Below, in pieces: positions 31,231-40,866 of a DNA stretch of 64,000 bases (its first letter is position 1; the number at the start of each line of letters is the position of its first letter). The stretch is taken from NCBI GenBank assembly GCA_005400705.1, contig GCA_005400705.1_4079.1, one strand, 5' to 3'. A model generated the notes under the pieces. That model was not told where the DNA came from. It ran no database searches and saw only the letters and a list, made by a program, of their open reading frames with translations. The DNA comes from Escherichia coli. GTDB lineage: Bacteria; Pseudomonadota; Gammaproteobacteria; Enterobacterales; Enterobacteriaceae. A program made the position numbers and the translations under genes.

Positions 31231-31635
31231 ATGAATATACGTTCAGTACGAATATTTTCATTTGTTGATATGAATGAAAAACACTCTTATGTGTTTGAAA
31301 CTGTCAATAAGTTAAATCCTCATACGGCAAAAATGATTGAAACCATGAAGATCTTGAGTTTGCATATAGAAGTTTACTATCTTCATGACGATTCTGTTTT
31401 TGTATATGATGATGGATGGTATGACGGTGTGTTTTATGATGACATTAGCACTACTGCTGATTACTACTTTCTAGTGAGTAACCCACTATTCAGTACTAAA
31501 ACTTTGTTTGACATTACCGATACAAGCGTGTATGATACAACTCATGTTGAGTTACTTAAGTTTGATCCAGTATTATTCAACAAAGAGACGGCGTATTGGA
31601 TGACTGATTTCTTTTCAAATATTCCAGTAAAATAG
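31231..31635 (+). CDS. hypothetical protein
   Basis: GGAG before ATG 31231 (ORF-track start 31213 is TTG). Confidence 0.5.
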   Translation: MNIRSVRIFSFVDMNEKHSYVFETVNKLNPHTAKMIETMKILSLHIEVYYLHDDSVFVYDDGWYDGVFYDDISTTADYYFLVSNPLFSTKTLFDITDTSVYDTTHVELLKFDPVLFNKETAYWMTDFFSNIPVK

Positions 31636-31699: not shown

Positions 31700-32395
31700 A
31701 TGGTTGAACAATTCATGTTTGGTGGTTATGCTAATGGCGAAGTACGTAACATTTCTATTCCTTACGTAGTTGAGAAAGTTAATGGTTCAGAACGTACATA
31801 TGATCTAGCATCTCGTATGATGCAAGACCGTATCATTTTCCTTGATACTGATTTCAATGATCAAATGGCACATATCATCAAACAACAATTGGTATGGTTA
31901 GACTCACAAGGTGATTCCCCTATTACATTCTACATTAGTTCACCGGGTGGTTCAGTACACGCAGGTTTGGGTATTGCAGATGTTGCTAAGTCTTGTATTT
32001 CGCCAATTCGCACTGTAGTAATGGGCTATGCAGCATCAATGGGTTGCTATACACAATCTGTTATTGGGACTAAAGGTTTCCGTTTAGGTGGTAAACGCTC
32101 ATACTTCATGTGTCACCAAGTAAGTTCTGGTACACAAGGTCTAATTACAGACCAGAAGATTTCCCTACAACATTCTGATGCACTGAATACATTGTTGACC
32201 AAAGAAATTGCAGAAGCTGTAGGTGTATCACATGAACAATTACTAAAAGATGCTGACCGCGATTTGTGGTTAAATGCAGAAGAAGCACTTGAATATGGTG
32301 AACATGGTTTCATTGATGGTATTATTCTTGGTCCACGTAACGAAGAAGGCAAGTACTTAGTTAAGCGTCGCGGTGGTGTAGAAGAGTGGGTGTAA
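31700..32395 (+). CDS. clpP: ATP-dependent Clp protease proteolytic subunit (ClpP-like)
   Basis: SPGGSVHAGLGI, MGYAASMG (Ser nucleophile context) and downstream His as in the ClpP S14 family; AGAGG Shine-Dalgarno. Confidence 0.8.
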   Translation: MVEQFMFGGYANGEVRNISIPYVVEKVNGSERTYDLASRMMQDRIIFLDTDFNDQMAHIIKQQLVWLDSQGDSPITFYISSPGGSVHAGLGIADVAKSCISPIRTVVMGYAASMGCYTQSVIGTKGFRLGGKRSYFMCHQVSSGTQGLITDQKISLQHSDALNTLLTKEIAEAVGVSHEQLLKDADRDLWLNAEEALEYGEHGFIDGIILGPRNEEGKYLVKRRGGVEEWV

Positions 32396-34353: not shown

Positions 34354-34789
34354 GGAAAGTAAATGTATTTCACAAAAAGTTGGTTGTGTTATTGTTAAAA
34401 ATAACCGAGTATTGAGTACTGGTTACAATGGTACTCCATCAAAACAACCAAATTGCTGTGATGTGAATCAACACTTAGTCAATGATGGGCGTTTTCAAGA
34501 CTGGGTTAGTGATGAAGCAAAGCATGAACATCATGAGTGGAGTAATATTCATGAAATCCATGCTGAAATGAACGCTTTACTCTATAGTTCTCCTACTGAA
34601 CGTCAAGGTGCTACTCTTTACACAACACTACAACCATGTTATACTTGTTCTAAGTTGATCGCAGGTAGTGGGATTTCACGTGTAATTTATCTCAAAAATT
34701 ATCCTCGTACACCACCAGAAGCTATTAAAGTACTGGAAGATGCTGGAATTATTGTTAATTGCATTTATGATAAGGGTCTTGATAAATGA
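34310..34789 (+). CDS. cd: dCMP deaminase
   Basis: HAEMNAL and PCYTCSK zinc-binding motifs; N-terminus collinear with T4 Cd as recalled; GGAG before ATG 34310. Confidence 0.85.
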   Translation: MKHTTWLKIAEVVAEESKCISQKVGCVIVKNNRVLSTGYNGTPSKQPNCCDVNQHLVNDGRFQDWVSDEAKHEHHEWSNIHEIHAEMNALLYSSPTERQGATLYTTLQPCYTCSKLIAGSGISRVIYLKNYPRTPPEAIKVLEDAGIIVNCIYDKGLDK

Positions 34790-35043
34790 CAGTAATAATT
34801 ATTATTGCTTTTCTAATAACAGTGTTTTTCATTTTTATGTTATATATAGTTGCTATGGATGAACCTAATACTTCTTTTCGAAATTATGAAGTTCGTTTTT
34901 CTGCACAAAATAATAAGTACTATATTGTAAACTGTATACACCGTAGTGAGAAAAGGGTAACAAGTAGATTTGGATTTACCATTTATTATAAAGACCGAGT
35001 AGAAGCTGATATGATTTGTCAGAAGCTTAATACTGTAGAATAA
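34786..35043 (+). CDS. small membrane protein
   Basis: ATGA overlap with cd; hydrophobic N-terminus. Confidence 0.5.
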   Translation: MTVIIIIAFLITVFFIFMLYIVAMDEPNTSFRNYEVRFSAQNNKYYIVNCIHRSEKRVTSRFGFTIYYKDRVEADMICQKLNTVE

Positions 35044-35071
35044 AAAAAGGAGCCGTATGGCTCCTTTTTTG
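35042..35071. terminator. bidirectional rho-independent terminator between convergent genes
   Basis: A-run, stem GGAGCC...GGCTCC, T-run. Confidence 0.8.
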
Positions 35072-35449
35072 TTAACCAGGGAGGTTACAATAATACAAAT
35101 CCCAAGGGTGATATTTCATCGCACCAGTACTCAATTTAATTTTATGAAACTGGAATGATTCGGCAAATGCACTATCGTCAATCTTAATACAAAAAGTGTT
35201 TTTGGCTAGAGTTGGTGCAATTTCCAATGCTGTTTTAGATGCATCTAATCTGATTTTATCTTTATCAAAACTTGTTATAGTTACAAAACGATAAACATTA
35301 AAATCAGTGTCGATAAGATCGTAAACACAACTAGAACGTTGATTAAAGATGTTCAAGTTATATTTCAATTCACCGTTTATATTAGCTGCGGTTACACAAA
35401 ACCCGCCGATATTGAATGGTAGTTTACCTTGTGCTGCGATAGCTTTCAT
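35072..35449 (-). CDS. hypothetical protein (125 aa), only credible minus-strand gene in window
   Basis: no overlapping + gene; AAGGAAA before its ATG on the minus strand; convergent with upstream gene at bidirectional terminator. Confidence 0.6.
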   Translation of the reverse strand: MKAIAAQGKLPFNIGGFCVTAANINGELKYNLNIFNQRSSCVYDLIDTDFNVYRFVTITSFDKDKIRLDASKTALEIAPTLAKNTFCIKIDDSAFAESFQFHKIKLSTGAMKYHPWDLYYCNLPG

Positions 35450-35519
35450 ATTTTATTTCCTTTTTTAAATATAAGTATGAAATATATTTGTTTTTTACAT
35501 CAGATGCACCATGAACTAG

Positions 35520-35548
35520 TTGACAAAACATCAGTGGTATGATATGAT
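35520..35548 (+). promoter_or_regulatory. sigma70-type promoter (TTGACA, 17 nt spacer, TGaTATGAT)
   Basis: consensus -35 TTGACA at 35520-35525 and extended -10 at 35540-35548. Confidence 0.5.
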
Positions 35549-35675
35549 CTGTTATAAACTGTACACCTTAAGTTTTATTTTTTAAAAATTTGAGTTAAGT
35601 ACAGAAAAAGTTTGACTTAAGTGTTTAAGTACTATATTATTTATATCTTCCTAAACAAAATTGAGGACTTGTTAT

Positions 35676-36284
35676 ATGAAAAGACTATGGCTTGAAGTGA
35701 TACAAGCAGCAATGTTTCTATTGTTAATAAATTTTCCAGCCAGTGCTGGTATTGAAAGTAAAAATGTGATAAAGTATAATCCTGAAACCCGAAATGTATA
35801 TTTCATATCAGATATTACAGATGGGTCACTCAAGAGAATGATAGAGTTGTATGATAAAGAACACTATGATACCATCACAATTACATCTCCTGGTGGTGAT
35901 TTTGATGCAGGTATTCGAATGGCAAACTTTGTTAGAGACAATGGGATAAATTTAATTGTTTCTAGGTATTGCAATTCAGCATGTACTGTGGTATTCTTTA
36001 GTGTATCTCCCGAAAAGCGATATATGACAAATCGCTCAGTACTGGGTCTTCATAACATTTCGATTAAAAGTAATGTTACTGATGGTGATAATTCATTTGT
36101 ATCTGTAAGACAGCTATCAACTTTTACCGAAGAAATGGCAACAAAGGTAGGTTTCCTTTTTTCACTATATGCAGCAAATGGAATCCCACCAGAAGTACTA
36201 TTTAGAGTTAGTCGTTCTCGTGGTGAAGATGTTGTAATATTAACAAAACCAGAACTGGTTTTTTACGGTTCAGTCAAACAATAA
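35676..36284 (+). CDS. secreted/periplasmic ClpP-class (SPGG-motif) serine protease-like protein
   Basis: signal-peptide-like MKRLWLEVIQAAMFLLLINFPASA; ITSPGGDFDAG ... CNSACT follows ClpP spacing; ATG 35676 with GAGGA upstream (ORF-track start 35661 is TTG). Confidence 0.55.
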   Translation: MKRLWLEVIQAAMFLLLINFPASAGIESKNVIKYNPETRNVYFISDITDGSLKRMIELYDKEHYDTITITSPGGDFDAGIRMANFVRDNGINLIVSRYCNSACTVVFFSVSPEKRYMTNRSVLGLHNISIKSNVTDGDNSFVSVRQLSTFTEEMATKVGFLFSLYAANGIPPEVLFRVSRSRGEDVVILTKPELVFYGSVKQ

Positions 36285-36354
36285 AAATAATTAAAATAAC
36301 AGGATGATTATGATGTACTTCCTTTGTTATTAATTATATTGAGATTATATAACT

Positions 36355-36615
36355 ATGACAAACATCCAAAACTTGACATCTATTATTTTTTATGCTACTG
36401 TAGTAATGTATGCTACAGTTATTTTTCTAACAGTTTTCATTTACAAAGATTATCGCAATGGCTTTATTGATCCAACTACAATGAAGTTCAATTCAAAATT
36501 CGAAGCAATAATTTATTATGTACTATCAACTTCATACTTGGTGTGCCTAATGTTGTTAGGAGCACTAATTTATATCTTATACACAACATTATTTGCAATT
36601 GGAGCTATTTTATGA
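36355..36615 (+). CDS. small two-TM membrane protein
   Basis: two long hydrophobic segments. Confidence 0.5.
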   Translation: MTNIQNLTSIIFYATVVMYATVIFLTVFIYKDYRNGFIDPTTMKFNSKFEAIIYYVLSTSYLVCLMLLGALIYILYTTLFAIGAIL

Positions 36616-37205
36616 CCTGTATTATTGCACACACTAACGGAGTAAGTTCTTTTATTGCTGGGGATAAGTTAGGAAGCAATGGATTTACAAAAACTGTTCA
36701 AACTGAACCAAAGGTATTCGAGAAAGAATTTATCAAGTTACATGATGATGGACTAACAAGAACTAAAGAAGTAATGGCATTGGGTTATACTACATCATTT
36801 CGTATGGGTCAGTTGTTAAATTATAACCTTAATTTACCTGAACAAGATGCTAGTCAAACATTTTCACAATATTTGGTTCTTAAAGTTATTCCAATTATTC
36901 GTCAAATGTTTAAAGAAGAATGGGGTGCACGAGATGCATCACAAGATGTAGGTGGTGGACAATTTATCATTCTCCACAATCATACAATCTATGAAGTTCA
37001 AGAAGACTTTTCAGTACTACAACCTAAAACAAGAATTACCGCAGTAGGTAGTGGGACATATCATGCAATTGCAGCAATGCAAGCATATATTGAAGTTGAG
37101 AACGAATCTAAAAAACCACTACACGAACGTATCAAATCAATTTTTAAAATTGTTAGTGATAATGTAACAAGCGTAAGCGAAGAGTTTGATGTTTTAAAAT
37201 ATTAA
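36612..37205 (+). CDS. HslV / proteasome beta-subunit-like Ntn hydrolase
   Basis: MTCIIAHTNGVSSFIAGD (Thr2 then IAGD) and AVGSGTYHAIAAMQA parallel HslV N-terminus and GSGG region; GGAG before ATG 36612. Confidence 0.55.
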   Translation: MTCIIAHTNGVSSFIAGDKLGSNGFTKTVQTEPKVFEKEFIKLHDDGLTRTKEVMALGYTTSFRMGQLLNYNLNLPEQDASQTFSQYLVLKVIPIIRQMFKEEWGARDASQDVGGGQFIILHNHTIYEVQEDFSVLQPKTRITAVGSGTYHAIAAMQAYIEVENESKKPLHERIKSIFKIVSDNVTSVSEEFDVLKY

Positions 37206-37232
37206 AAGTACTAATATTATAAGAGAGAATAG

Positions 37233-37427
37233 ATGATGGCATACACAATTTATGAATGGGTTTTGAGTTTTTTTATAGTTTTTTCTATTGTTGTAATTTA
37301 TAACCATGCTAAATGCTTATATAGGGACTTGAAATCCAATGGTTATCACAAAGATAATAATTTTATGTATGCCTATCATATTGGAATCATTCTGTTATTA
37401 TCAATATATTTAATTGTTTTTTTATAA
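37233..37427 (+). CDS. small two-TM membrane protein
   Basis: hydrophobic segments. Confidence 0.45.
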   Translation: MMAYTIYEWVLSFFIVFSIVVIYNHAKCLYRDLKSNGYHKDNNFMYAYHIGIILLLSIYLIVFL

Positions 37428-37436
37428 GGATTGAAT

Positions 37437-38189
37437 ATGATATCAGAAAAATTTATAAGCAATGAAGGTAAAAAGCGATTACTGATTATATCAGGTGCAG
37501 GACTTTCTGTTGAAAGTGGTATGGAACCTTTTCGATTTGATGATGGTTTGTGGGATACATTTAAAATTAATGATGTATGTAACATTGCGAGTTTAACTAC
37601 AAAATATCATGTTGTTCATTCTTTCTATAATACATTACGTGTAAAATTGGGACAATGCGAACCGAATGCAATGCATTATTTTATAAAATCGTTAGAAGAT
37701 CAATATGGTGATTGCTTCCTTCATATGACTTCTAACATGGACGATCTTTATACTCGTATTGGTGGTCATGAGCTTAAACTTCATGGAAACTTGTGTGAAG
37801 TTATTGAAAATTATAGTATCAATTCCGATGATTATAATGTTATTAACTGCGGATACGAACCATACATACCAAAACATGATGTTTTTGCTAAACCAAATGT
37901 AGTAATGATTGGAGAATATCATCGTTATGTTGATGGTATTCGCTTACCAATTTACGAAGAACGAAATAATGTGTTGAAATCTCTTAATGAAAATGATACA
38001 GTTATTGTAATTGGTAGTAGCGATACAGTACTGGTATGGTCGAGATTAGCAGCAGCATTGCCATGTTATAGTGTTAATGTTAACATTCGTAAAAATGATA
38101 ATGATTTTTTGTTTAATGAAAAAGTTATCAAGCCAGCAACCAAAGCAATACCGCATCTAGAGACTATAATTAAGGAACGTATGAAATGA
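37437..38189 (+). CDS. Sir2-family (sirtuin/CobB-like) NAD-dependent protein
   Basis: GAGLSVESGMEPFRFDDGLW, TSNMDDLYTRIG and LHG align with CobB GAGISAESGI / TQNIDNLH / HG motifs; AAGGA before ATG 37437. Confidence 0.75.
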   Translation: MISEKFISNEGKKRLLIISGAGLSVESGMEPFRFDDGLWDTFKINDVCNIASLTTKYHVVHSFYNTLRVKLGQCEPNAMHYFIKSLEDQYGDCFLHMTSNMDDLYTRIGGHELKLHGNLCEVIENYSINSDDYNVINCGYEPYIPKHDVFAKPNVVMIGEYHRYVDGIRLPIYEERNNVLKSLNENDTVIVIGSSDTVLVWSRLAAALPCYSVNVNIRKNDNDFLFNEKVIKPATKAIPHLETIIKERMK

Positions 38190-38737
38190 GTGTTAAAGAA
38201 GTTCCCTTTGGTGAATATGGCACACGTGCAAATTTTGTATTTTGTTATTTCTTTGCAAGAAAATGCAACCCTTACAAAAACTATGAGTTGAATGATATAC
38301 CAGAAGTAAATTTAGTATTACTGCAATTACGATGGGATGGTCTTCTTGGTGGATGTGGTGGAACCGTAGAAAGTACTGATATCTCACTAGAAGATGCGTT
38401 GTGTCGTGAAGTTCAAGAAGAAATGGATTACAATATTTTTGTTTCCCATCTTCGACCACTCAAAACTTTTGAAATTTACCCAGGTGCAAACAGTCATAGT
38501 TTTAGCTATGAAGTGAGCTATGACGAGTTGAAACACATTAGAGATGGATACACTAATGCTAAACATGCAAGTGCAGAAGTTGCTGGTGTAAATTTATGTC
38601 ATATTTCTCGTTATTCTAAGGGACAAAATCGAGAAGCGGGATATCATAATCTTATGACACAGAACTTCATCGGTACAGCAAAACAAGAATTGGAGTATCT
38701 GGTTCAAAAAGAAAACTTACTAATTAGTTATCTATAG
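38186..38737 (+). CDS. Nudix-like hydrolase (divergent Nudix box)
   Basis: GGCGGTVESTDISLEDALCREVQEEMDY carries the REVQEE core with non-canonical spacing; ATGA overlap with Sir2 gene. Confidence 0.5.
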   Translation: MSVKEVPFGEYGTRANFVFCYFFARKCNPYKNYELNDIPEVNLVLLQLRWDGLLGGCGGTVESTDISLEDALCREVQEEMDYNIFVSHLRPLKTFEIYPGANSHSFSYEVSYDELKHIRDGYTNAKHASAEVAGVNLCHISRYSKGQNREAGYHNLMTQNFIGTAKQELEYLVQKENLLISYL

Positions 38738-38746
38738 GAGTTTAAC

Positions 38747-39067
38747 ATGTCTTACTCAATGTTTTTGGATGATATTCGTGATGCAAATCTATATTATCCA
38801 AACCAAGATATGGTGGTATGTCGTGACTTTAAAAGTGCATGTGAATATGTTATTGAAAATGGAATTCCAGCATTTGTATCATTCGACCATGACTTGGGTG
38901 ATGTGAGCGAAGACGAAAAGACTGGATATTCTTTTGCTAAGTTTCTTATTGATTATATGTTTGATAATAATATTAAAGAACCGTTTGAGTACTTTGTTCA
39001 CAGTAGTAATCCTGTTGGTAAAATTAATATTGAAACATACTTAAACAATGGATTTAACGCATTATGA
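38747..39067 (+). CDS. receiver-like (CheY-fold-like) small protein
   Basis: FLDDIRD acidic pair, VSFDHDLGD, HSSNPVGK: pattern similar to receiver / cyclic-phosphate-processing receiver domains; from memory. Confidence 0.4.
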   Translation: MSYSMFLDDIRDANLYYPNQDMVVCRDFKSACEYVIENGIPAFVSFDHDLGDVSEDEKTGYSFAKFLIDYMFDNNIKEPFEYFVHSSNPVGKINIETYLNNGFNAL

Positions 39068-39366
39068 TTCAAACACACATCAAAAGTCTTATTTGTACTG
39101 TTCTGTTAGGTGCAGGAGTTCTTTGGTTCGGACAGTATCACGAGAACACTAAGCGTACCAACATTCACTACAATACCGCAGAAGTTGTTAGTTTAGGACA
39201 ATGTAGCGAGTCCAAATGTTCATTTATGTATAAAACCCAAAGTGGTGAAGTACGTAATGGACTATCAAGAGAACCAGTTTCAATTGGTCAACTTGTTTAC
39301 CAGGAGTGCTGGGAAGAAAAGGTTCGAGGTTCACGTTGCTATGTTGAATACGAACCAAATATGTAA
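39064..39366 (+). CDS. small protein with N-terminal TM helix
   Basis: ATGA overlap; LICTVLLGAGVLWFG hydrophobic segment. Confidence 0.5.
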   Translation: MIQTHIKSLICTVLLGAGVLWFGQYHENTKRTNIHYNTAEVVSLGQCSESKCSFMYKTQSGEVRNGLSREPVSIGQLVYQECWEEKVRGSRCYVEYEPNM

Positions 39367-39426
39367 TAATCCGAGTCAATAACATTAGTCGAGTGCAAGG
39401 ATGTACTCATAACTCAAGGATGTTTT

Positions 39427-40866
39427 ATGAAAAAATATACAATTGACACAAACGTACTACTATCTGACCCGAATGCATCTATTGCTTTTGATGGTGCTGC
39501 AATCATTCTACCATTTACAGTACTGGAAGAATTAGATTCGATTAAGAGTCGTAATGTAGATGTTTCACGCGATGCTCGTGTTGCTATTCGTAACATTGAA
39601 GCAATTATTGCAGATGCATCACATGACGAGATTAGTAGTACTGGTGTTAATATTGCTGATGTTCATACCAATATGAATCCTGATAGCAAATTGTTTGTTA
39701 TTACAAACGAAGAAGCTGAGGCACTAATTCGTACTAAAGGTACAGAAGAGAAAGTTCAAACCCTTCTCAAAAGTACTGTACCTGATGATAAAATCATTCT
39801 GGTAGCTTTAGCAACAGAATCAGTACTGGTAACTCGTGATATCAACATGCGTATCAAAGCACTAAGTTATGGTGTCGAGGTACAAGATTATCGCCATGAT
39901 ATTGTTATTGGTGATAGTGATTTGATTCACATTGGTCAACACCATCTGGAAATCAATTTTTGGGAAGTATACAGCAACTTAACCAATACTAATATTCAAT
40001 CCGAACAAGTTGGTCGTCGTTTGTATCATTACATTTCTAAAAGCTTGATTGAACATCTGCTTCCACAAAATCTATGCATCGGTGATTATCTATATGATGA
40101 TGCTGACGTATTATTTGTGTACGAAGGACAATCAGCAATTGAGGAAGATGATGGAACACTAACACCAGAAGATATTTTGGTATTCCAAGATATTGGACAA
40201 TCAGTAGCTTTACGTGCTAAAGTATGGGATATTAAAGCAAAGAATATCCAACAAGCACTCGCCATCAACAGTATTCTCGATCCTGATGTACATCTAACAG
40301 TACTGCTAGGTTCTGCTGGTACTGGTAAAACACTAATTACGATTGCTACTGCATTAGAATTAGTACTGGAAAAATGTAAATACGACCGAATCATCTTCTC
40401 TAAAACTCAAGACTCACAGTTTGAAGATATTGGTTTCTTGCCAGGTTCAGAAGCAGAAAAAGTGATTCCATTCTGTGGAGCCGCAATTGACGCGTTAGAG
40501 TTTCTTCATAAAGATGATGCTAACCCACAAGGTAGTATTGAAGAGATTATGAAACGTAATGTTATTCAATTTAAAGCACTAAACTTTGTACGTGGACGTT
40601 CATTCACCAACACTATTCTAGTAGTTGATGAATTCCAAAACATTACACCTGCACAAGCCAAAACAATCTTGACACGAGCAGGATTAAACTGTAAAGTAGT
40701 AATTATGGGTAACTTGAGTCAGATTGACAGTAAGTTTATTAGTCCTGTTAACAGTGGTTTGACATATGTAACTGAGAAGTTTAAAGATTGGGCAGGTTGT
40801 CGTGTCATCGAACTTGAAGGTGTTGTTCGCTCACCACTAGCTGAATTTGCTGAAGAAAATATGTAA
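39427..40866 (+). CDS. phoH: PIN-domain + PhoH-like ATPase
   Basis: N-terminal YTIDTNVLL..LEELD (PIN-like); Walker A GSAGTGKT; Walker B VVDEFQN. Confidence 0.85.
   Translation: MKKYTIDTNVLLSDPNASIAFDGAAIILPFTVLEELDSIKSRNVDVSRDARVAIRNIEAIIADASHDEISSTGVNIADVHTNMNPDSKLFVITNEEAEALIRTKGTEEKVQTLLKSTVPDDKIILVALATESVLVTRDINMRIKALSYGVEVQDYRHDIVIGDSDLIHIGQHHLEINFWEVYSNLTNTNIQSEQVGRRLYHYISKSLIEHLLPQNLCIGDYLYDDADVLFVYEGQSAIEEDDGTLTPEDILVFQDIGQSVALRAKVWDIKAKNIQQALAINSILDPDVHLTVLLGSAGTGKTLITIATALELVLEKCKYDRIIFSKTQDSQFEDIGFLPGSEAEKVIPFCGAAIDALEFLHKDDANPQGSIEEIMKRNVIQFKALNFVRGRSFTNTILVVDEFQNITPAQAKTILTRAGLNCKVVIMGNLSQIDSKFISPVNSGLTYVTEKFKDWAGCRVIELEGVVRSPLAEFAEENM

Follow-up and report, generated by a model that had tools for sequence, protein, structure and literature searches.

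Two independently inherited peptidase homologues, probably not one protease machine, in an accessory stretch of an Asteriusvirus jumbo coliphage

Background

Do an exported ClpP-like protein and a cytoplasmic proteasome-like protein, encoded close together in a phage genome and interleaved with two small membrane proteins, form one protease machine? The question is raised by positions 35520-37427 of contig GCA_005400705.1_4079.1, a stretch of 64,000 nucleotides from an Escherichia coli assembly that we refer to as the window. Four genes, here called A to D, occupy this locus:

35676-36284, + strand: gene A, exported ClpP-fold serine hydrolase homologue, 202 amino acids (aa), recognized by profiles, fold and motifs
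36355-36615, + strand: gene B, two-helix membrane protein, 86 aa, hydrophobic segments scoring 2.28 and 2.34
36612-37205, + strand: gene C, cytoplasmic N-terminal-threonine hydrolase homologue of the HslV/BPH branch, 197 aa, recognized by profiles and fold
37233-37427, + strand: gene D, two-helix membrane protein, 64 aa, hydrophobic segments scoring 1.98 and 2.21

The answer that we favour, and consider probable, is that this is a non-structural accessory stretch containing two unrelated, probably active and independently inherited peptidase homologues, A and C, and not a single protease machine. An earlier sequence-only reading of the same DNA had joined the four genes into one protease module. 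The promoter, open reading frames, motifs and coordinates that it described are all present in the sequence; its interpretation of them is modified below.

The window is 99.5% identical to the Asteriusvirus jumbo coliphages PBECO4, JP4, SP27 and phAPEC6, and 88.6% identical to phage 121Q. These are RaK2-like phages of 350 kb, and this identity, together with the 121Q record, replaces the T4-like label that the locus had been given. The presence of several protease homologues had also been considered unusual. However, the 121Q record already labels gp464 and gp473 "protease (ClpP-like)" and gp475 "protease (ClpYQ-like)", newer phage records name the same genes "protease" and "peptidase HslV family", and phage proteasome homologues have been surveyed (PMC8665760). 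Because the genes are annotated in public records, their novelty is low, and the locus is ordinary phage content. The JP4 and Sharanji genome papers do not discuss the A-D locus, and our literature search for work on HslV homologues of phages or ClpP-like proteins of the periplasm returned genome notes and no functional study. PADLOC finds no defence-system relatives of A to D, of a separate ClpP homologue encoded upstream or of a Sir2 homologue encoded downstream.

An exported protein with a ClpP fold

Protein A starts with MKR, followed by a hydrophobic stretch that ends in PASA/G, and its start codon is preceded by a GAGG Shine-Dalgarno sequence. Its main features are:

35676-35747, + strand: signal peptide, aa 1-24, predicted cleavage at ASA/G
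aa 71-74 of A, + strand: SPGG oxyanion motif, within ITSPGGDFDAG
35970-35984, + strand: Cys99-x-Ser101-x-Cys103, the CxSxC motif
36051-36053, + strand: His126, aligned general base

A matches phrog_26024, annotated as 'protease', at 4e-119. Searches of the PDB with A or C as single sequences yield noise only, and profiles are required. When a profile of A homologues is compared with PDB structures of ClpP, Ser101 falls on the catalytic serine and His126 on the catalytic histidine. Foldseek searches with an AlphaFold model of A rank ClpP chains first, at 6e-7. This model was built from 8 close sequences only and has a mean predicted local distance difference test (pLDDT) score of 67, with the N-terminal half above 80 and the C-terminal half poor.

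An exhaustive profile search detects at least 1,889 relatives of A among cluster representatives. Seven positions are invariant in 30 diverse relatives, namely S71, G73, G74, C99, S101, C103 and H126. The family has no dedicated Pfam model, and 10 of the 30 relatives match the Pfam model for ClpP at E<0.01 (best 2.4e-7). In a set of 198 relatives, the CxSxC motif occurs in all but one (197/198), an N-terminal hydrophobic segment in 169 and a lipobox-like motif in 47. Since N-termini of the signal or lipoprotein type are present throughout, the family is predicted to be exported. A has the defining features of what we term the exported CxSxC ClpP-fold family, an otherwise unnamed grouping defined in this analysis by a signal or lipoprotein N-terminus, SxGG, CxSxC and an invariant histidine. 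The proposal that A is a ClpP-fold protein with a signal peptide is thus upheld: serine and histidine are retained, ITSPGGDFDAG is present and export is predicted.

A resembles ClpP (MEROPS S14, PF00574) in its fold, its SPGG oxyanion motif and its aligned serine and histidine, but differs in its signal peptide, predicted periplasmic location and invariant CxSxC motif, and in lacking a conserved counterpart of ClpP Asp171. A protein in the periplasm would be unable to use an ATPase, and A does not fit the pattern of a cytoplasmic tetradecamer that docks an AAA+ partner, given its predicted Sec signal and the absence of ClpX or HslU from the window. Like A, the NfeD/STOPP (1510-N) and SppA (S49) proteins have the ClpP fold, are extracytoplasmic or membrane-associated and are independent of ATP. 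SppA and NfeD proteases use a Ser-Lys dyad. In contrast, no lysine is invariant among the 30 relatives of A, whereas His126 is, which argues against Ser-Lys chemistry of this kind. A scores 13.5 bits against the Pfam NfeD1b_N model, whose cut-off is 40, the PDB match to 1510-N is weak, and no gene for a stomatin/SPFH partner lies beside A.

Within the hydrophobic region of the signal (35676-35747), Glu7 and Gln10 are invariant in phage homologues that are about 50% identical, forming a KE..Q pattern. Such conservation is unusual for a signal peptide, and the helix may serve for more than targeting.

Members of the A family are also found on bacterial chromosomes, for example in Vibrio aestuarianus and Undibacterium. 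Peptide-export genes (HlyD-like proteins or ABC components) adjoin the bacterial relatives in two of three contexts inspected. The V. aestuarianus locus (L011, 1-4759) contains a C39-peptidase ABC exporter, an HlyD-like adaptor, a radical-SAM enzyme and a 61-aa open reading frame, and the Undibacterium locus (L012, 3871-6693) contains a faint HlyD-like match and an ABC ATPase. These bacterial contexts hint at secreted peptides or bacteriocins.

A cytoplasmic relative of HslV and the proteasome

The start codon of C is fixed by a GGAG Shine-Dalgarno sequence. The N-terminus of the protein reads MTCIIAHTNGVSSFIAGD, and GSGTYHAIAA is also present. Features of C are:

36615-36617, + strand: codon of Thr2, which becomes Thr1 after Met removal
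36663-36665, + strand: Asp18 (proteasome Asp17)
36711-36713, + strand: Lys34 (proteasome Lys33)
37047-37055, + strand: Gly146-Ser-Gly148, the GSG loop, within GSGTYHAIAA
36717-36773, + strand: Asteriusvirus-specific insertion at aa 36-54, ~18 residues, modelled as a beta-hairpin

We found 76 homologues of C. In the 41 that were aligned, M1, T2, C3, D18, K34, G146 and G148 are invariant. A profile of the family aligns with E. coli HslV from end to end at 7e-8, with an hhalign probability of 95%. The structure model is confident (pLDDT 92.4), has the four-layer alpha-beta-beta-alpha fold and is equally close to HslV and BPH. These results bear out the earlier description of C as an HslV/proteasome-beta-like N-terminal nucleophile (Ntn) hydrolase, because the positions of Thr1, Asp17, Lys33 and the GSG loop are all invariant. 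Profile searches had been proposed as a check on both A and C, and their outcome is mixed: the thresholds of curated Pfam and NCBIfam models are missed, but family profiles lead to ClpP and HslV, with catalytic residues kept.

C shares with HslV (ClpQ) the alpha-beta-beta-alpha Ntn fold, a propeptide-free Thr1, the Asp17, Lys33 and GSG positions and a similar size. It differs in that it is only ~17% identical, carries the hairpin at aa 36-54 and has no HslU that is adjacent or encoded by the phage. The hairpin is located at the S3/S4 site, adjoins the active site and is absent from most members outside Asteriusvirus. In the ungapped N-terminal alignment, a valine of C occupies the position of HslV Lys28, a residue that we take to contact the HslU tail.

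Group I proteasome homologues comprise HslV, BPH, AAH, CPH and PPH, and phage members have been noted (Fuchs, Alva, Lupas 2021, PMC8665760). C fits this group; PPH proteins have only ~140 residues, compared with 197 in C.

Some phages carry two adjacent genes labelled 'peptidase HslV family', as in Aeromonas phage 2L372X (L004, 3501-4052, and the next gene, which spans the origin). The second Aeromonas 2L372X gene encodes ~138 aa and is PPH-sized. In other phages (Vibrio phage 166E36-1, L006, 3501-4484), a 327-aa version of the HslV-family protein has a C-terminal extension of ~140 aa that matches no Pfam family.

A tblastn search of the 64-kb window detected no homologue of HslU, ClpX or Lon (every match at E>0.5), as the sequence-only reading had noted for HslU/ClpX-type ATPases. 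A tblastn search of all phage records with E. coli HslU returned only four "Escherichia" records, a result implying that Asteriusviruses lack HslU. Nor is HslU present in any context of a C homologue that we inspected.

Separate histories of A and C

The two peptidase homologues are distributed differently. The C family is present in 198 phage records, mostly without A, and includes members in T5-like Epseptimavirus and in Aeromonas, Vibrio, Yersinia and Geobacillus phages. A is present in only 50 phage records, from host genera that differ from those of the C family. Klebsiella jumbo phages carry A with no neighbouring C: in K64-1, A is followed by NMNAT and NAMPT genes, two small membrane proteins and Sir2, and C is absent from the locus. 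In phage EJP2, about 5 kb of NAD-salvage genes separate A from C; there, C overlaps a gene for a D-like two-helix membrane protein, and a B-like gene lies downstream of C, followed by a homologue of the anti-CBASS protein Acb1. In Turkey5, a gene for an Ig-like protein is inserted on the opposite strand between B and C (L007, 2984-3892, - strand). Its product is a longer paralogue of the protein encoded at 35072-35449 of the window.

These differing distributions and insertions indicate that the adjacency of A and C stems from the common descent of a variable accessory island and not from an obligate machine. A and C are inherited independently, and the proposal of one module is not supported.

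The two membrane proteins were called from hydrophobic 19-mers on the Kyte-Doolittle scale, two in each protein, in agreement with the earlier description of both as having two transmembrane segments. B belongs to no Pfam or PHROG family, and its homologues are restricted to 36 Asteriusvirus-type records (38-100% identity). Those of D are restricted to 32 such records (51-98% identity), with positional equivalents in A4, Turkey5 and EJP2. B and D are lineage-specific. C homologues in Vibrio, Aeromonas and Geobacillus phages have no membrane-protein neighbours, so we rejected the idea that membrane proteins are universal partners of the C family. In T5-like phages such as OSY-STA, the HslV-like gene is immediately preceded by a gene (L003, 3094-3402) for a DUF3307 membrane protein (Pfam 2.3e-9) unrelated to B and D.

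Mass spectrometry of phAPEC6 virions identified 62 proteins, and homologues of A, C, the separate ClpP and Sir2 were not detected among them. This absence indicates that the three protease homologues are non-structural.

Several observations weigh against the reading that we favour. A scores 17.5 bits against Pfam CLP_protease (PF00574), below the cut-off of 20.2. Residues 126-153 of its model have pLDDT values below 50, so that the C-terminal half is unreliable, and the RGED sequence that aligns with ClpP Asp171, which falls in this part of the model, is not invariantly acidic in close homologues. Its export is called from hydrophobicity and the AxA rule. C has no match to the Pfam Proteasome model and scores 18.9 and 20 bits against the HslV equivalog models TIGR03692 and NF003964, whose cut-offs are 157.75 and 137. 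These scores are so far under the cut-offs that C is not an HslV orthologue. Among Asteriusviruses, the gene order A-B-C-D-Sir2-Nudix...PhoH persists even at protein identities of only 38-64%, the stop codon of B overlaps the start of C (ATGA), and there is no convincing terminator between the A-D genes. These features leave room for a functional link within the Asteriusvirus lineage, for example of C with a small membrane protein.

Promoters and transcription

The upstream boundary of the cluster is a divergent gap between genes, which contains promoter-like sites:

35520-35548, + strand: sigma-70-type promoter, TTGACA-17-TATGAT with extended -10 TG (11/12 + TG)
35612-35640, + strand: second, weaker promoter site from the promoter scan
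35072-35449, - strand: divergent virion protein gene, upstream bound of the cluster (phrog_33171, virion structural protein, 6e-88)

The near-consensus promoter that had been described (TTGACA-17-TGaTATGAT) is present at 35520-35548, in the gap from 35449 (-) to 35676 (+), and is the top-scoring site in 34700-39500. The DNA is AT-rich, and single local sites are not above chance: 32 were found, compared with 28 expected from shuffled sequence. Over the whole window, however, there are 15 sites scoring at least 11/12 on the + strand and 1 on the - strand, compared with ~5.8 expected on both strands together. This enrichment and strand bias suggest that such sites are real host-type promoters, and the 35520 site is probably a member of this set. 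Promoter-like sites also occur at 31508 and 31638, just upstream of the separate ClpP gene. The sole terminator-like site in 35548-38737 falls within gene B, and such sites are about as frequent as expected by chance. The Sir2 and Nudix genes downstream probably share a transcript with A to D.

Mass spectrometry of phAPEC6 virions detected gp347, the homologue of the 35072-35449 product, with 75% coverage. The longer paralogue of this virion protein has 302 aa and two Big_2 Ig-like domains.

Neighbouring genes and the accessory island

Other genes of the window that bear on the locus are:

37437-38189, + strand: Sir2 homologue (Pfam SIR2, 3.6e-20)
38186-38737, + strand: Nudt16-like Nudix hydrolase (Pfam Nudt16-like, 3.4e-18)
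31700-32395, + strand: separate cytoplasmic ClpP homologue, 231 aa (Pfam CLP_protease, 4e-41)

The Sir2 and Nudix genes directly follow D and overlap each other by ATGA. In relatives this pair has NAD-salvage genes beside it, which points to a connection with NAD or ADP-ribose metabolism. What lies between the A homologue and Sir2 is a variable island (L009, 3218-6353 and 8351-8782, in EJP2; L010, 4571-7183, in K64-1), and in both phages it includes NMNAT and NAMPT. The Acb1 homologue of EJP2 is gene 129 (Pfam 1.8e-17). The presence of NMNAT with NAMPT and of Acb1 suggests that the A-to-Sir2 locus collects counter-defence genes.

A gene for a PhoH-like ATPase (39427-40866) is situated less than ~2 kb from the C-family gene. 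The same is observed in the Aeromonas (L004, 610-1395) and Vibrio (L006, 2491-3276) phages. The phAPEC6 homologue of this PhoH protein, gp341c, was detected in virions, as was gp347.

The ClpP at 31700-32395, which the sequence-only reading had set apart as canonical, is a genuine homologue with an intact Ser-His-Asp triad. It matches PDB ClpP at 1.4e-36, is 36% identical to E. coli ClpP and keeps the AASM serine, the histidine and the DRD aspartate. Its PHROG label of 'head maturation protease' is probably wrong, and we rejected this assignment because these phages have another protein, a T4 gp21-like prohead protease, and because ClpP was not detected in virions.

A model for the two proteins

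From the folds, conserved motifs, gene distribution and gene order described above, we infer the following picture of export, catalytic activity, oligomeric state, partners and substrates. The locus would be transcribed from a host-type sigma-70 promoter. A would be exported through Sec, with its signal peptide cleaved after Ala24, and in the periplasm it could act as an ATP-independent ClpP-fold hydrolase that uses Ser101, His126 and an SPGG oxyanion hole. The two invariant cysteines that flank Ser101 could form a disulfide, and the substrates are likely to be peptides or proteins that are exported or belong to the envelope.

C, by comparison of the same kind, would stay in the cytoplasm, where removal of the initiator methionine would expose Thr1. 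Together with Asp17, Lys33 and the GSG loop, Thr1 would make up a threonine active site of the proteasome type, probably in a ring-shaped oligomer like that of HslV or BPH. Since the phage lacks HslU, C may work alone, as BPH does, or with the HslU of the host. Of the two, we consider it somewhat more likely that C acts by itself in the manner of BPH than that it captures host HslU. B and D would be lineage-specific small proteins of the inner membrane, with B translationally coupled to C.

Alternative explanations

Of the other explanations, the one that fares best is that C is a surrogate HslV whose rings dock host HslU, and that the resulting hybrid, an ATP-dependent protease, redirects the proteolysis of the host in the course of infection. 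E. coli and other hosts of C-family phages encode HslU, the phage does not, and the fold and catalytic set of C are HslV-like with no propeptide. Another jumbo phage is in the same situation, with orphan HslV genes and no HslU, as noted in its genome paper (PMC7823757). However, the 20-bit score of C compares with HslV equivalog cut-offs of 137-158, the Lys28 position is a valine and the hairpin at aa 36-54 is placed at the S3/S4 site adjoining the active site. We therefore regard the surrogate as possible but rather unlikely.

A more speculative proposal, to which we give less credence than to the surrogate, makes C, perhaps with B, a counter-defence or host-takeover protease. Its setting would be the variable island that carries anti-immunity genes in sister phages (Acb1, NMNAT with NAMPT), and it would degrade specific host proteins alone or through captured HslU. 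Separately, under the same proposal A would be the first member from a phage in a large and so far undescribed family, made up of exported peptidases with a ClpP fold in which the nucleophilic serine lies between two invariant cysteines.

Somewhat less likely still is a single system in which the two membrane proteins link an exported protease to a cytoplasmic one, for host takeover or envelope remodelling. One strong promoter without a convincing internal terminator, a gene order that survives strong divergence, the ATGA overlap of B and C, and the overlap of C with a D-like membrane gene in EJP2 would all be expected of such a system, and the invariant E7 and Q10 suggest that the helix of the A signal sequence could do more than targeting. 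Tight packing of genes is normal in phages, however, and the distributions of A and C differ. C is missing from the K64-1 locus, which retains A, Sir2 and two small membrane proteins, the ~5 kb of NAD-salvage genes in EJP2 and the opposite-strand gene in Turkey5 break the series, and C homologues elsewhere lack membrane-protein neighbours.

We doubt that A, C or both are catalytically inactive and serve as scaffolds or decoys, for instance by inhibiting the ClpP or HslV assemblies of the host. Both proteins fall under curated family thresholds, and A lacks a conserved third triad residue. However, the nucleophile, general-base and oxyanion positions are all invariant across very divergent homologues, a pattern expected of active enzymes, and the predicted export of A would take it away from the cytoplasmic proteases of the host.

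It is very improbable that C, instead of degrading proteins, acts as a sequence-specific ligase or transpeptidase in the manner of archaeal connectase (PF09894), a reading that we rejected because C neither reaches the family cut-off nor has its closest structural similarity there, even though its sole Pfam match is to the connectase MJ0548_N domain (E=0.08) and its Asteriusvirus insertion occupies the S3/S4 position at which connectase has its specificity element (PMC8665760).

Conclusions

The reading that we favour, of two separately inherited peptidase homologues, re-derives annotations that phage genomes already carry, and in this respect it changes little. It does raise two questions. 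One is the role of orphan proteasome/HslV homologues, which are widespread in phages (198 records, none with HslU alongside). The other is the nature of the exported CxSxC ClpP-fold family, which comprises at least 1,889 cluster representatives and lacks a dedicated Pfam model; our literature search returned no study of it. Either answer could show how phages use proteolysis against the cytoplasm or the envelope of their hosts.

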